In this document: piece by piece, positions 3,155-8,053 of the stretch
How the letters are laid out: every line of letters begins with the position of its first letter
Numbering within the stretch: the stretch's first letter is position 1
Made by a program: the position numbers and the translations under genes
The notes under the pieces: model-generated
Databases searched by the model: none
What the model saw: the letters and a program-made list of their open reading frames with translations, nothing else
What the model was told of the DNA's origin: nothing
Origin: a virus
Taxonomy: Duplodnaviria > Heunggongvirae > Uroviricota > Caudoviricetes
Direction: 5' to 3' (one strand)
Length of the DNA stretch: 36,609 nucleotides
Virus record (IMG/VR): IMGVR_UViG_2698536401_000015

Positions 3155-3510
3155 TATGCTCCAGCCTCCGGTGCTTTTGGCATTACTGCCCAGTGAGTGA
3201 TATTGACGTTTTCAAGGTCCCCGACCTGAAATGTCCACTGCCATTCTCCGGTTTCTTTTTGTCCCCAGGTGTACCAGAGAGAACGCCAGCCAATTAGCCA
3301 GCCTTCTCCGTTAGCATCGAATAACAAAACACTTTCATTTGCTGGTGGCAGTTCAGTTGACACTGGTATTACTTTGTTTTCCTGTGCTGCACATTTAGCT
3401 TCAAGCGCATCGAATTTACGCACCAGGTATTCAGCATCTGTTTCATTTACTTTCAGATCTCGCGGTACACATCTCCCACGAAGAAACCCTTCCATTTCGA
3501 AAACATTCAT
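3154..3510 (-). CDS. DUF551-like phage protein
   Basis: C-terminal ...NITHWAVMPKAPE resembles the conserved THWMPLPEPP end of DUF551 proteins. Start placed at the ATG (3510) that overlaps the upstream stop as ATGA; an alternative ATG lies at 3516. Confidence 0.55.
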   Translation of the reverse strand: MNVFEMEGFLRGRCVPRDLKVNETDAEYLVRKFDALEAKCAAQENKVIPVSTELPPANESVLLFDANGEGWLIGWRSLWYTWGQKETGEWQWTFQVGDLENVNITHWAVMPKAPEAGA

Positions 3511-4043
3511 GCGCATTTGCGTAACTCCGATAACTCGTTAAAGCGTTCCATAAACATCCCGTAGGCATGGCCCGGTGCCAGTGGAATCACGTTGAACATC
3601 TCTGTTGCCGGGATACCTTCCAGTACAGGCCAGAAAGAGCCATCATCAAGCCCGAGATCGCGGCGTTCGGTTGCCAGCATGATGAGATCGGCATATTTCA
3701 CGGGCGTACTCATAACTGGGGGTAATCCGTATTTCTCACGGATTACGGAGTCTATTTTTTCTTCCATTTGTTTATAGTCAGGAAGAAGGCGTTTCAGTGG
3801 TGCGGGAATGTCCTGGCAATACGCTTCTGTTGCATCATGCATTAACGCTTCAAAAGCAAATTCCTGCGGCACCAGCTGGCTGCAAAGAACCGCATGTTGG
3901 GCGACGCTGTAGAAGTGCGAAAGATGACCGGCAAAGCGACAGATATTTGAAAGGGAAACCGCGATATCGTTAATATCGATGTCGTCTTTATTTATCCTGT
4001 CATAATAAAAATGCTTCCCGGAAAAAGTTTTAATAAATGACAT
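3507..4043 (-). CDS. YfdR-like HD-domain phosphohydrolase (putative 5'-deoxynucleotidase)
   Basis: Start at MSFIKT with a GGAGAA ribosome-binding site; H...HD motif (ALMHDATEAY); matches my recollection of CPS-53 YfdR. Confidence 0.7.
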   Translation of the reverse strand: MSFIKTFSGKHFYYDRINKDDIDINDIAVSLSNICRFAGHLSHFYSVAQHAVLCSQLVPQEFAFEALMHDATEAYCQDIPAPLKRLLPDYKQMEEKIDSVIREKYGLPPVMSTPVKYADLIMLATERRDLGLDDGSFWPVLEGIPATEMFNVIPLAPGHAYGMFMERFNELSELRKCA

Positions 4044-4170
4044 TTTGTTCTCCACGTATATGCACTGCACCGCGCTGAATTCTGGTAAAAGGAAGCCCTC
4101 ACCATTCGGTGATTATTGAGTTAATTACGTTTCCATAAATGCCCCCGCAGGGGCATTTGCAGTAATGAAA

Positions 4171-4995
4171 TCAGGCGGTGAAAGTACCAATAAAGGTTTC
4201 TACTTTGCTGTCTTTGAATTTCTCAACAAGCAGATCACGAAATTCGTTAGCCATTTCTTCCTGCACCGCTTCCAGCTGAATAATGCGCAGAACCAGTACC
4301 GGACGATCGCCAGTGATAATGCTGAGGCGTAATTTAAACGGACGTTCTTTGAGACCTTCAAACGGAATGCATTTAAATTCAAATGCCACTGGCATAATGT
4401 CTTTGGTCTTCGCTTCGACAGACTCCATCAGGGAGCGTTTGCCGCTGAAGTCATTATCTTCAAAATCAGCGGTCTGGTTTGCTTCAATCGTGATTTTACG
4501 GACCGCCGCAGCCGCTTTTGTTGCCTGAATGGTGTCACCATTAGCATCAAAGCCCACAAGGTAGTCGGCCCAGTCTTCAATCCATTCTGCCAGTGATTTC
4601 TGGGAGTTACGCTCGCCATTAACAGACAACAGAGCAGAGAACGGTGCTGTCTTTTTCAGTTTGAGAGTGGCGGTGTTATCTGCGTGACCTGGTTCATCAA
4701 TAGTACCCAGGTTAAGCACACTGACGGCACGCATATTATCAGCATCGATAAAGCAGCGGGTGCCTTCATCTGCAAGATCTTTAGAATAACGGGTAAAGTC
4801 ATCGATGCTGGCAGTGGAAAGCGCACCACGGAAACGGAAGCGATTTAAATTAAATTTTTCCAGATCATGAATGCGGAAATTCTCAGGCAATGCCACAGCA
4901 TCGGCACCAATCTTACTGATAATTTCATTAACACCCTGAGCAGAAATAAGGGCATGGATTTGATTAATTGCGGTTGCGTCTAAGTTCTGAGACAT
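4171..4995 (-). CDS. YfdQ-like protein (DUF2303), 274 aa
   Basis: Length and sequence match recalled CPS-53 YfdQ; sits in the early-left operon. Confidence 0.7.
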
Positions 4996-5060
4996 AATAA
5001 GTCCTCACTATATAAAGATATTCAGTGATGAGATAAATAATCAGTTAATTAAGAACGATA

Positions 5061-5423
5061 TTAATGACCTGCTGCGCGGAGTTTTCCGTCAGGTTCACCG
5101 GCAAGAGTCAGTAATTGTCCCTGGTCTTCCTGCAGAATAGTCAGGCGACCACCGCGATTGACATACATCGGCGTTTCGGTGGTGTCTTCTTCGGAAATTT
5201 TCCCGCGGTTAGTCGGGCGAACATATGAGAGTTTGTGTTTGATTTTCACACGGTTCTCATCAAATGGTTCGATTTCCAGGTTGAGTGAGACCTTACCTTT
5301 GGTTTTCGTGTTCATCACACCGGAAGCGACTTCACTGAGAACTGCGCCGATTTTGGTTTCAAATACGCCGCCGTCCAGCTCCCCGATAAATGCCTGCACA
5401 TCAGTACTGCGTTCGCTAGCCAT
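5061..5423 (-). CDS. YfdP-like hypothetical protein (120 aa from the internal start MASERSTDV)
   Basis: The track ORF extends further upstream; the plausible ATG is at 5423 (ATGGCTAGC). Gene order matches yfdP-yfdQ-yfdR. Confidence 0.55.
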   Translation of the reverse strand: MASERSTDVQAFIGELDGGVFETKIGAVLSEVASGVMNTKTKGKVSLNLEIEPFDENRVKIKHKLSYVRPTNRGKISEEDTTETPMYVNRGGRLTILQEDQGQLLTLAGEPDGKLRAAGH

Positions 5424-5471
5424 TTTGCTGCTCCTCATCATATCGACCCTGCAAGGTCGGTTGGTTTCTCC

Positions 5472-5560
5472 ACAAAACAGAGAAGAACACCTGCGGTGGC
5501 AGCCGCCCGGATGGATTGGGTTATGAGCCCGTCGTCCGGTGATGCTCTTCTCTGTTTTGT
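5472..5560. repeat. imperfect 18-bp inverted repeat (17/18) with a 53-bp spacer in the leader of the leftward operon
   Basis: ACAAAACAGAGAAGAACA (5472-5489) pairs with TGCTCTTCTCTGTTTTGT (5543-5560); a nested CCGGA/TCCGG pair lies inside. Adjacent GGTACC...GGGTACAAG...GGTACC motifs at 5570-5604. Confidence 0.6.
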
Positions 5561-5860
5561 AAAAAGGACGGTACCAGCCGGAAGCAAGGGTACAAGCTGG
5601 TACCGCCAGGACTACACATAGCATAAAGTTGTGGTGCCGGGTGCCTCCCGGTGCCTGGCGAAGGTTGCACACCAGGCGGGTGGGTATCTACAGAAGGTCG
5701 ACTGTCAGCCTCAACCTTAACCCGCGTGCGCTGAGCCGCATTCACCACAACGCTAAGGATTCTCTCTGGTTGAAAATACTTAGCTGTTATGTGCCTGTCT
5801 TTTCACCACTTCAGGCTCGGTGGTATCCTTTTAAGCCCGTATACATAAAAGGAAAATCAA

Positions 5861-6106
5861 ATGACTTTTGATGAAAAAGAACTTGATAATGCAATTAATA
5901 AAATCATCGTAACGTCGCTCTTTTCCTGTCTCAGCGACACTCAGCAGAAACAGTTCTACGAATCGGCTTTCAACATGATCGAGCGTTGTTGTTTCTGCGA
6001 TGCCGACGAGTTACCTGAAAAAATCAGGAAACAGTTGGCTGATGCTCTTCGAGTGCGACTTTCTGACCAATTTTCTGAAATGTGCTCTCCGAATTTGGAC
6101 AAATAG
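5861..6106 (+). CDS. small hypothetical protein (81 aa), cargo gene beside the immunity region
   Basis: ATG preceded by AAAGGAAAA ribosome-binding site; lower GC than flanks; overlaps the 3' end of the convergent minus-strand ORF by 83 bp. Confidence 0.4.
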   Translation: MTFDEKELDNAINKIIVTSLFSCLSDTQQKQFYESAFNMIERCCFCDADELPEKIRKQLADALRVRLSDQFSEMCSPNLDK

Positions 6107-6299
6107 AAAAAGGCCATTTCCATTCAGGGTCTGATGGAAATACTTCAGCCTGTTCCAAAGCACGGCGTAAAGAGAACACAACTCCAGCCATAATCTGATG
6201 TTTCCCATTGGTCCAGCTATCGCCGCTCTGATCTACAGGGGCGGCTATGTCGTATGACCAAACGACTTCACAGTTATTGTTTAAAATCTGGACTTTCAT
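6024..6299 (-). CDS. small hypothetical protein (91 aa from MKVQIL; 98 aa from the upstream ATG)
   Basis: Lies downstream of cI and its terminator on the same strand; AGGTG ribosome-binding site before the second ATG; no family recognised. Confidence 0.4.
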   Translation of the reverse strand: MKVQILNNNCEVVWSYDIAAPVDQSGDSWTNGKHQIMAGVVFSLRRALEQAEVFPSDPEWKWPFSICPNSESTFQKIGQKVALEEHQPTVS

Positions 6300-6453
6300 T
6301 TCATACACCTGCTTTAACATGAGTGCCTAGTGGCACAACATGACTCAACGAATCATCCTGGACTTCATATGCCCCAGGCGGATACTTCGTGGGCGTCCTG
6401 CCTGTTTGTTGTTTCTCTTGGGTACATTATGTATCTCAAAGGTACATTGTCAA

Positions 6454-6479
6454 GTATAAAAAAACCTGCCGAAGCAGGT
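6454..6479 (-). terminator. rho-independent terminator downstream of cI
   Basis: Hairpin ACCTGC-CGAA-GCAGGT followed on the minus strand by a T-run (A7 on the plus strand at 6455-6461), 14 bp past the cI stop. Confidence 0.55.
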
Positions 6480-6492
6480 TCATAAACATTGA

Positions 6493-7167
6493 TTAGGCTT
6501 TGATTTTGTATCTTCTTGGTTTTCCTGAGAAAATCACAGTTCCAATTATAGAGCAATTACCGTTGATCTTAATGTAAGGCTCAGGCCAGTTTGGGTTTAA
6601 CGCTTTGAGATAACGCTGTGTCCCATCTTCTATCAACCTTTTGAAGGTGGTTTCACCTGTATCGTGCATCAATGCAATAACGTCGTCACCGTGGCAGGCA
6701 GGTACTTCAGGATCGACAAAAATCATGTCTCCCGGGCGGTACTCATCAATCATTGAATCACCTATCACCCGCAAGATATAAGTCATTTCCCCACAGGGTA
6801 CAGGGCAGGGATACGTTTCTGCTGTGCTCAAATCAACCTCAGAATATCCAACTTCTTTCCATGCTCCGGCCTGTACCCATGATATGACAGGGACTAATGT
6901 GATTTGTTTATTAGTGATTGAAACATCAGGTTTTTTTGTGATGTTCGTTGTCTGGTGTTCTTGATCGAGCCATCCGACAGGCAGGTCGAAACATTTTTCG
7001 ATGTGTCGTGCCATGCTGTCACCGATATTTTTAGTAGCACCATCTCCCATAAACCTGCTGGTCTGGGTTGGCTCGCGATCAATCATAGTGGCAAAGGAAG
7101 AATTCCCGCCAACACCATCTCTCAGTTTTCTGGCGTTAGACCGCCGGATGTCATGGATTGTTTTCAT
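6493..7167 (-). CDS. cI: CI-type prophage repressor with HTH and S24 (LexA-like) autopeptidase domain
   Basis: 224 aa; C-terminal GDSM...K serine-lysine dyad context and a VDPE region; transcribed divergently from a cro-like gene across an operator-bearing region. Confidence 0.85.
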   Translation of the reverse strand: MKTIHDIRRSNARKLRDGVGGNSSFATMIDREPTQTSRFMGDGATKNIGDSMARHIEKCFDLPVGWLDQEHQTTNITKKPDVSITNKQITLVPVISWVQAGAWKEVGYSEVDLSTAETYPCPVPCGEMTYILRVIGDSMIDEYRPGDMIFVDPEVPACHGDDVIALMHDTGETTFKRLIEDGTQRYLKALNPNWPEPYIKINGNCSIIGTVIFSGKPRRYKIKA

Positions 7168-7183
7168 AACGAAATTAAAACCC

Positions 7184-7252
7184 TTGTACCGTTAAGGTAC
7201 AAGTATCTTGAAGGTTCATTTCAATCATGTAATATGTACACCGGAGGTACAT
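7184..7252. promoter_or_regulatory. right operator region with two 19-bp dyad operators and a candidate pR
   Basis: TTGTACC-GTTAA-GGTACAA (7184-7202) and ATGTACA-CCGGA-GGTACAT (7234-7252). Candidate pR is TTGAAG (7208-7213), 16-bp spacer, TAATAT (7230-7235); GGAGG ribosome-binding site before cro. A similar site ATGTATC-TCAAA-GGTACAT lies at 6429-6447. Confidence 0.6.
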
Positions 7253-7257
7253 ATTGT

Positions 7258-7458
7258 ATGAAAGCGTATTGGGACTCTTTAACCAAAGAACAGCAGGGCG
7301 AGTTGGCCGGAAAAGTTGGCTCAACACCTGGCTACTTACGGCTGGTTTTCAATGGCTATAAAAAAGCCAGTTTTGTGCTGGCTAAAAAACTTGAGCAATG
7401 CACGTCAGGTGCAATTACGAAATCTGACTTAAGACCGGATATCTATCCGAAAGATTAG
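7258..7458 (+). CDS. cro: Cro-like HTH regulator (66 aa)
   Basis: Divergent from cI; ATG at 7258 with GGAGG ribosome-binding site; the track ORF starting at 6955 is an artefactual upstream extension running through the operator region. Confidence 0.65.
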   Translation: MKAYWDSLTKEQQGELAGKVGSTPGYLRLVFNGYKKASFVLAKKLEQCTSGAITKSDLRPDIYPKD

Positions 7459-7489: not shown

Positions 7490-8053
7490 ATGAGGCTAAT
7501 CGTGGGTAAGCATCACTGGAAAATAGAAAAACAGCCTGAGTGGTACGTGAAAGCTGTCAGAAAAACTATCGCGGCGTTGCCGGGTGGTTACGCTGAAGCG
7601 GCTGACTGGCTGGATGTAACAGAGAACGCATTATTTAACCGCCTTCGTGCCGATGGCGATCAGATTTTCCCGCTGGGATGGGCAATGATTTTGCAACGTG
7701 CTGGTGGAACTCACTTCATTGCTGACGCTGTGGCGCAGTCTGCAAATGGCGTCTTTGTGTCTCTTCCTGACGTCGAGGATGTGGACAACGCCGATATTAA
7801 CCAGCGTCTGCTGGAAGTCATTGAACAGATCGGCAGTTATTCAAAACAGATTCGTTCAGCAATCGAAGACGGTGTAGTGGAACCGCATGAGAAGACAGCA
7901 ATTAACGACGAGCTGTATCTCTCAATTTCGAAGCTGCAGGAGCATGCAGCACTGGTCTACAAAATCTTTTGCATTTCAGAAAGTAATGACGCCCGCGAGT
8001 GTGCAGCTCCGGGCGCCGTGGCGTGTCGTGACTGTGGAGAAACTAACGCATGA
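7490..8053 (+). CDS. CII-like lysogeny regulator (possibly CP76-type), 187 aa
   Basis: Position immediately after cro; size and composition fit the longer CII-like family. Start uncertain (ATG 7490 or GTG 7502). Confidence 0.45.

Follow-up and report, generated by a model that had tools for sequence, protein, structure and literature searches.

A convergent gene pair and a conserved upstream element in a pL-proximal cargo slot of SfV-type lambdoid prophages

What do two small genes that face each other beside the repressor gene of a temperate phage have to do with one another? The question is raised by IMG/VR virus record IMGVR_UViG_2698536401_000015, a Caudoviricetes sequence of 36,609 nucleotides (nt), here called the window. 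In it, an open reading frame (ORF) of 81 amino acids (aa) on the plus strand and one of 91 to 98 aa on the minus strand converge next to a cI-like repressor gene and overlap at their 3' ends by 83 base pairs (bp) (Table 1). A sequence-only reading of the window had pointed out this pair, placed it in the slot that holds rexAB in lambda and suggested that the antisense overlap couples the two genes at the RNA level. The pair as such was confirmed from the ORF list. The longer version of the minus ORF (98 aa; 6024-6320, minus strand) starts at an alternative upstream ATG at 6320, and the ATG at 6299 (MKVQIL..., with AGGTG upstream) is the one conserved in all homologs. We conclude that the region is a two-gene accessory cassette (about 5790-6301) in a cargo slot close to the early leftward promoter (pL), and that the conserved element in front of the plus gene is a more unusual finding than the pair itself.

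Two constrained genes and a passive overlap

The ratio of nonsynonymous to synonymous differences (pN/pS) was calculated by the Nei-Gojobori method as the mean over six lineage pairs. In the unique parts of the two ORFs, each longer than 160 nt, it amounted to 0.26 for the plus gene and 0.28 for the minus gene (6107-6299), compared with 1.75-2.15 in wrong-frame controls. Substitutions per site at codon positions 1, 2 and 3 were 0.62, 0.30 and 1.26 in the plus-unique part, and 0.63, 0.31 and 1.12 in the minus-unique part, each counted in the gene's own frame across six lineages. Each ORF has its own Shine-Dalgarno sequence (SD) and a conserved start, distant homologs show conservative amino-acid replacements, and both ORFs are kept open in every homologous locus examined; among the E. 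coli-type cassette loci, the plus ORF is intact in 173 of 173 and the minus ORF in 170 of 173. Because pN/pS lies below 0.3 in the own frame and at about 2 in the wrong frame, both genes are real. They are protein-coding genes under purifying selection, and ORF conservation together with coding-type substitutions places the pair far beyond chance.

Purifying selection on both therefore excludes the alternative that just one ORF is real and the other a chance open antisense frame, which we regard as almost certainly wrong. What spoke for it was that every annotation pipeline calls just one of the two, and that an open antisense frame is common in this phase; the comparative data given above refute it. 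The sequence-only reading had itself called for a comparison of substitution patterns in each frame and had named selection on a single frame as the outcome that would count against it. With that comparison run, both genes, taken as wholes, turn out to be constrained in their unique parts.

No annotation calls both ORFs. For Shigella phage SfV only the minus ORF is annotated (orf33), for vB_EcoM-720R4 only the plus ORF, and PGAP calls one or the other depending on the E. coli genome. The public names of the proteins are 'hypothetical protein' and a few obvious mislabels. The exact plus protein (cluster of 5861-6103, plus strand) is sometimes labelled 'cation transport regulator ChaB' or 'Phage tail protein', and family searches gave no support for these two labels. 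The SfV GenBank record also lists a 'putative rho-independent terminator' at 5841-5873 (minus strand), over the SD and start of the plus gene; it was rejected, as no convincing stem-loop with a T run was found there.

Within the overlap, pN/pS was 0.57 in the plus frame and 1.06 in the minus frame, which looks neutral, and codon periodicity flips at about positions 195-255 of the cassette (about 6055-6115 of the window). The test for a dual-coding pair thus failed, with constraint in the plus frame only and an overlap length as expected from composition. Across lineages, the minus ORF measures 91-122 aa and the overlap 83-173 bp; in all other lineages the minus ORF is extended to 122 aa, with an overlap of 158-173 bp, and the extra tail of these versions has a pN/pS of 1.96, the level of the wrong-frame controls. 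Synonymous recoding of the plus ORF showed that an antisense frame open over at least the observed length is not unusual (P = 0.23-0.80). Plus and minus protein thus have conserved parts that end nearly back to back. Past the conserved core of the minus protein, its frame runs on into the antisense of the plus gene until it meets a stop. The same run-on is seen elsewhere in the slot, where a leftward ORF (MHYTGVQMNNY...) found with two cargos has two different tails (L117 and L203). We conclude that the overlap arises passively, by run-on of the minus frame, and is no dual-coding or specially selected feature.

The proposed RNA-level coupling therefore has to be divided: the overlap itself is incidental, but the convergent genes have no terminator between them, so that RNA-level or transcriptional interplay is unavoidable if both are transcribed. 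A candidate terminator inside the minus ORF, at about 6110-6150 (a ATTTCCAT..ATGGAAAT hairpin with a T run), was discarded, since other lineages lack the hairpin and the T stretch codes for the conserved WPFS.

Position of the pair within the pL unit

The stretch from 5400 to 6600 of the window is 98.8% identical to Shigella phage SfV, and the immunity region is lambdoid in layout according to the ORF list, profile searches and the comparison with SfV. The terminator of the cI transcript exists as the sequence-only reading had said, but slightly off the place given to it (6454-6479), at 6481-6462 on the minus strand. It is followed by a pL-like promoter with an operator in its spacer. The operator pattern TGTAC-N7-GTACA recurs in the window as two right-operator (OR) copies between cI and cro (7185-7201 and 7235-7251) and as one stray match, and phage Ayreon, which has the same immunity, carries an annotated promoter at the pL position. 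Judged by sequence, operator and promoter are the predicted left operator (OL) and pL.

Since the cI terminator is followed by OL/pL, the pair belongs to the pL unit and does not share a transcript with cI. In lambda, rexAB is located between cI and the cI terminator and is co-transcribed with cI from pRM. Here, the terminator and pL/OL (6453-6426) separate cI from the pair, and the assignment to the rexAB slot had to be given up. Searches of Pfam, PHROGs, PADLOC and NCBIfam as well as fold searches likewise found no homology or fold similarity to RexA or RexB.

Because pL and a structured leader directly precede it, the minus gene opens the pL operon and occupies the place of N or nun; in relatives, the minus homolog always stands on the repressor strand as first or second gene after the repressor. 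We conclude that the minus gene lies in the N or nun position of an N-less, SfV-type lambdoid prophage. The leader begins about 10-20 nt past the predicted pL start site and is common to many pL and immunity types; it is also conserved in phages such as ST64B, mEp237, SPN3UB and ZF40. It matched no Rfam family and is, by its position, a put-like candidate only.

HK022-type put RNAs bring about terminator read-through via the zinc-binding domain of the RNA polymerase beta' subunit. In HK022, putL lies just downstream of pL (PMC9378689). The window resembles the putL/nun arrangement in being an N-less lambdoid phage with a structured RNA right after pL and a small accessory gene in the N position. 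It differs in that the leader shares only CAGGATGA with putL, has no blastn similarity to the HK022 pL-putL region and has no second, putR-like copy after pR (a single copy is present in the window). Unlike N and Nun, the minus protein is acidic and lacks an arginine-rich motif; it is unrelated to Nun and matches no family.

Co-inheritance of the pair and the element in front of it

The suggestion of a variable cargo site next to cI was borne out, as phages of the same immunity carry other cargo or none. Of phages that share the repressor and the yfdP flank, PhiR29_1 has a 242-aa rightward gene where the pair would be, SfIV two other rightward genes and Ayreon no cargo. Among 80 IMG/VR loci, homology to the window breaks on the right at 6301, just upstream of the minus ATG, in 18 and at 6406, the leader end, in 42; on the left it breaks at about 5790 in a few. 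A moron, in Hendrix's definition, is an independently transcribed insert in a lambdoid genome. Presence or absence between conserved flanks is expected of a moron and is seen in the comparison with SfIV, PhiR29_1 and Ayreon; no convincing plus-strand terminator was found for the plus gene, and the promoter-like signal was limited to TGgTATCCT in the conserved block described below. Separately, E. coli genomes without the remaining cassette (H53-H55) match the 42 bp at the start of the minus ORF (MKVQILNNNCEVVW, 6258-6299) at 100%, which suggests that this 5' end is common to other genes or marks a recombination junction.

Protein searches recovered plus relatives of 58-64% identity in Klebsiella, Salmonella and Yersinia and a minus relative of 64% identity, with more distant ones from 1.8 billion cluster representatives. 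For each homolog, the encoding contig was fetched and the opposite strand inspected for the partner ORF. Wherever one gene was present in an examined locus, so was its partner, in convergent and overlapping arrangement. The distance from ATG to ATG is 439 bp, with zero indels, in six lineages of 64-68% DNA identity, and this indel-free cassette occurs in prophages of E. coli/Shigella, Salmonella, Klebsiella and Yersinia; four further loci retain the pair at a plus-protein identity of 27-50%. The cassette is present in 425 of 5,426 complete E. coli genomes (about 8%). Only three isolated phages have either gene, and all three have both. A scan of genome contigs with minus-protein patterns gave no matches, and a metagenome pattern scan gave mostly chance matches and 2 true ones.

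This linkage bears on a second explanation, namely that two unrelated genes, an ordinary early pL gene and an ordinary moron, are held together only since their overlap leaves no neutral recombination junction, with convergent transcription playing no regulatory part other than ordinary polarity. The passive nature of the overlap fits it, as do other cargos of the slot that also converge on and overlap the adjacent leftward ORF, the MHYTGVQMNNY... ORF with its two cargos and differing tails, and rare variants without an intact minus ORF. We nevertheless consider this explanation, the main rival of the model favoured below, less likely than not: partner exchange occurs in other overlapping pairs of the slot and was never seen in this pair, over about ten lineages and down to about 30% identity; both outer flanks have been shuffled repeatedly while the pair stayed together; and the plus and minus proteins diverge in parallel. 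The strict co-inheritance suggests that the two products act on one process.

The plus gene is preceded by a non-coding block of about 40 nt that is more conserved than either protein, being near-identical in a locus whose plus protein shares only 34% identity. A pattern search matched it in genomes of Rahnella, Salmonella, Buttiauxella, Kluyvera, Klebsiella, Hafnia and Ca. Phlomobacter, and in more than 120 viral contigs. It stands in front of at least 15 unrelated families of small ORFs (63-163 aa) in at least 8 genera of Enterobacterales, always with leftward early genes on one side and, on the other, a rightward cargo ORF converging towards the repressor end. The start codon always follows 30-35 nt past the block, and the entire element measures 71-75 nt (about 73 nt; 5791-5853 in the window). 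A Yersinia variant (L089) alters both of its interleaved complementary pairs coherently, to GCCGGG/CCCGGC and ACCACG/CGTGGT, as expected of compensatory change.

The 3' end of the block, UCCUU, is predicted to pair with the cargo SD, AAGGA, and the extension of this helix covaries by cargo (UCCUUUUA/UAAAAGGA, UCCUUAC/GUAAGGA, UCCUUGC/GCAAGGA, UCCUCU/AGAGGA and UCUUGGU/ACCAAGA). In the 5' untranslated regions (UTRs) of the cargo types, the SD helix was scored sequence by sequence, because RNAalifold on MAFFT-aligned UTRs gave only the ACCAC/GTGGT stem. The helix is present in nearly all cargo types, with a mean of 6.7 bp for cognate strands compared with 5.7 bp for non-cognate ones. Known elements that sequester the SD in the 5'-UTR include fourU-type RNA thermometers and small pseudoknot riboswitches. 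The element resembles them in that a U-rich strand pairs with AAGGA at a fixed distance from the start codon, after a compact, pseudoknot-like conserved domain. It differs from them in that neither block nor element matched an Rfam family and transcription of the block on the plus strand is only putative. From its sequence, the block may act as a promoter, as a 5'-UTR RNA or as an element of the pL transcript.

Readings of the block as a LexA box, a sigma-54 promoter or an RfaH ops site were rejected by inspection. The block could serve as promoter of the STnc100-like RNA region (Table 1) in the window (AAGACA-17-TATTTT), but the -10 is not conserved where the block is. Among block-carrying loci, homologs of the minus core were found only beside plus-family cargo; the block therefore belongs to the slot in general, and plus and minus together are the specific unit. 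The viral contigs L189 and L216 carry two copies of the block, each before a different small ORF, so that one phage can have two such cargo positions.

As the sequence-only reading had stated, neither product belongs to a recognised family. Pfam, NCBIfam, PADLOC and PDB sequence searches came back empty, PHROGs assigned the plus and minus proteins to families 3311 and 3195, both of 'unknown function', and family and profile searches with distant homologs of both were likewise without usable match. Literature searches for SfV orf33, the block sequence and comparable convergent pairs found nothing relevant. Judged by their sequences and models, both proteins are small, acidic and without a membrane-spanning stretch. 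The AlphaFold2 model of the plus protein is an acidic three-helix bundle (predicted local distance difference test score, pLDDT, 84) with non-specific structural neighbours; a zinc site in its RCCFCDAD (CCxC) was rejected, since only one Cys is conserved in distant homologs. The minus model is ordered only for residues 1-64 and disordered beyond. Its core (6107-6299, minus strand; about aa 1-65) is a beta-hairpin plus helix and holds all invariant residues (W14, G26, W29, P55, W60 and P63).

Some minus-family proteins (P0060-P0062; L097, 4001-4579) are extended at the N-terminus by a further domain of about 85 aa (MEFKDLP...). By eye, N-termini of the MEFKxLP type also begin separate first pL genes in L107 (962-1276) and L109 (1429-2001), whose C-terminal parts are unrelated to the minus core.

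The coordinates of the pair and of the surrounding features are collected in Table 1. The 'structured leader' that had been claimed for the leftward operon is real, as a sub-threshold match to the Rfam model of STnc100 (5769-5558, minus strand) that covers the full model length. STnc100 is described as a prophage small RNA related to PasD (bioRxiv 10.64898/2026.05.13.724894). In E. coli H1827/12 (L101, 2078-2388), a PGAP pseudogene ('frameshifted hypothetical protein') covers the STnc100-like stretch, and in phage 720R4 a motif like the 5' part of this region (GUGGUGAAUGCGC...) lies directly behind pL.

Table 1. Features of the immunity region and of the cargo slot (window coordinates)
Feature	Position	Strand	Remarks
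yfdR/yfdQ/yfdP-like early-left genes	3507-5423	-	
STnc100/PasD-like structured RNA region	5558-5769	-	RF02076, 41.4 bits (gathering score 47), E=6e-7
Ultra-conserved non-coding block GTGCCTGTCTTTTCACCACTTCAGGCTCGGTGGTATCC	5791-5828	+	two interleaved complementary pairs, GCCTG/CAGGC and ACCAC/GTGGT
Hairpin of UCCUUUUA with UAAAAGGA (plus-gene Shine-Dalgarno), 7 nt before ATG	5826-5853	+	fold prediction
Plus gene, encoding an acidic three-helix protein of 81 aa; antisense to pL	5861-6106	+	phrog_3311
3' overlap, 83 bp	6024-6106	both	minus-frame tail is an unconstrained run-on
Minus gene, 91 aa, first gene of pL unit	6024-6299	-	phrog_3195; MKVQ start conserved
Conserved structured leader RNA, about 65 nt, put-like candidate	6345-6412	-	compensatory changes in 6 of 13 predicted pairs
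pL-like early leftward promoter, TTGACA-16-CATAAT	6426-6453	-	11/12 promoter match
Operator TGTATctcaaagGTACA within pL spacer	6430-6446		fits TGTAC-N7-GTACA
Intrinsic terminator of cI transcript	6462-6481	-	8-bp stem and T run; also a terminator in the SfV annotation
cI-like repressor, LexA/S24 type	6493-7167	-	Peptidase_S24, E=1.5e-26; cI in the SfV annotation
cro	7258-7458	+	
CII-like gene	7490-8053	+	

A model of expression in alternative phage states

Repressor-adjacent slots of temperate phages accumulate exclusion, defence and conversion genes; rexAB of lambda and bstA of prophage BTP1 are repressor-adjacent exclusion genes. The pair is a repressor-adjacent prophage accessory module, and transcriptional coupling of its two genes is likely. 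We tentatively favour a composite model, to which we would give a little less than an even chance, in which a lysogen-expressed cargo gene and an early-lytic partner are made mutually exclusive by convergent transcription. In the lysogen, cI would repress pL, leaving the minus gene silent and the plus gene expressible, gated by its 5' element. Upon induction or infection, pL would fire and the minus protein would be made early. The polymerase, probably made termination-resistant via the leader, would then transcribe the antisense strand of the entire plus gene and of its 5' element, and the plus gene would be shut off by collision or antisense pairing, such that the two proteins would appear in mutually exclusive states of the phage. 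Our best guess is that the minus protein may neutralise an exclusion or host-modifying factor expressed by the prophage, sparing the phage's own lytic growth.

The composite model shares features with several known systems. As with rexAB and bstA, accessory genes lie by the prophage repressor at a site of variable content, and expression of the plus gene in the lysogen is plausible; unlike with rexAB, the cI terminator and OL/pL come first. The closest precedent for how it might work is sieB-esc, a lysogen-expressed exclusion function in the pL operon from which the phage escapes via a second product, with an antisense RNA switching expression; sieB and esc are in-frame products of one pL-strand gene, and sas is a small non-coding RNA. 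The sieB-esc system of P22 and lambda with its sas antisense RNA was reportedly described by Ranade and Poteete in 1993. The pair differs from it in consisting of two separate convergent protein genes without SieB homology. Transcriptional interference between convergent promoters is said to have been reported by Callen et al. in 2004 for pR and pL of coliphage 186. There, too, units face each other in the control region of a temperate phage and the opposing promoter is silenced by a strong lytic one; in 186 the facing promoters themselves constitute the switch, whereas here the opposing unit is cargo, with interference only inferred.

A toxin-antitoxin-like or abortive-infection pair, made up of a toxic product and its protein antidote at a ratio set by convergence, appears improbable to us. 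In its favour are the small size and close linkage of the two genes, their place in a prophage hotspot, their small acidic cytoplasmic products, and a site known as a home of prophage defence genes such as lambda rexAB and BTP1 bstA. Against this, no toxin or antitoxin family and no PADLOC model was matched. The genes are convergent rather than co-directional and without domain matches, which disagrees with a type II system, and there is no short hydrophobic peptide and the antisense partner is protein-coding, which disagrees with type I. Loci exist with a truncated minus ORF beside an intact plus ORF, but none that has lost the plus ORF. Expression in alternative states, as in the composite model, would rule out mutual titration.

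Several observations weigh against the composite model as well. Some natural or assembly variants combine a truncated (28 aa) or frameshifted minus ORF with an intact plus ORF (L093, a Salmonella locus from Logan SRR21221901, as well as P0043, P0050 and P0037); the truncated ones (L093, P0043 and P0050) mean that, at least there, absence of an intact partner is tolerated by the plus gene's carrier. The linkage could be a by-product of the physical overlap. In L089, the Yersinia locus, the leader stands at the opposite side of the cassette, and a leader-first order is thus not obligatory. The strand comparison of the SD helix that admits wobble pairs is nearly equal (6.7 bp on the plus strand, 7.0 bp on the minus strand), and the TGgTATCCT inside the block is extended -10-like; if it is a promoter, the 5' arm of the SD hairpin falls outside the mRNA. 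Similarity in sequence, profile or fold (Pfam, PHROGs, NCBIfam, PADLOC and PDB) gives neither protein a function, and the defence models of PADLOC-DB 2.0 gave only chance-level matches (E>=0.015).

The boldest version of our proposal, which we put forward as doubtful speculation, goes beyond the composite model. The ~73-nt element would be a new cis-regulatory RNA gating the translation of interchangeable prophage cargo at a pL-proximal hotspot of Enterobacterales, and the pair a new two-component system in which a lysogen effector of exclusion or host modification is disarmed in lytic growth by an obligately linked early protein and by convergent, antiterminated transcription.

Since annotation pipelines pick up just one member of the pair, half of the module usually escapes notice. 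If the state-coupled arrangement is true, it would be a simple and general way to express a function only in dormancy and to cancel it on induction. Searching with the conserved element retrieves unrelated small cargo genes at the same position in at least 8 genera, and the resulting cargo list provides ready candidates for new prophage-encoded functions.

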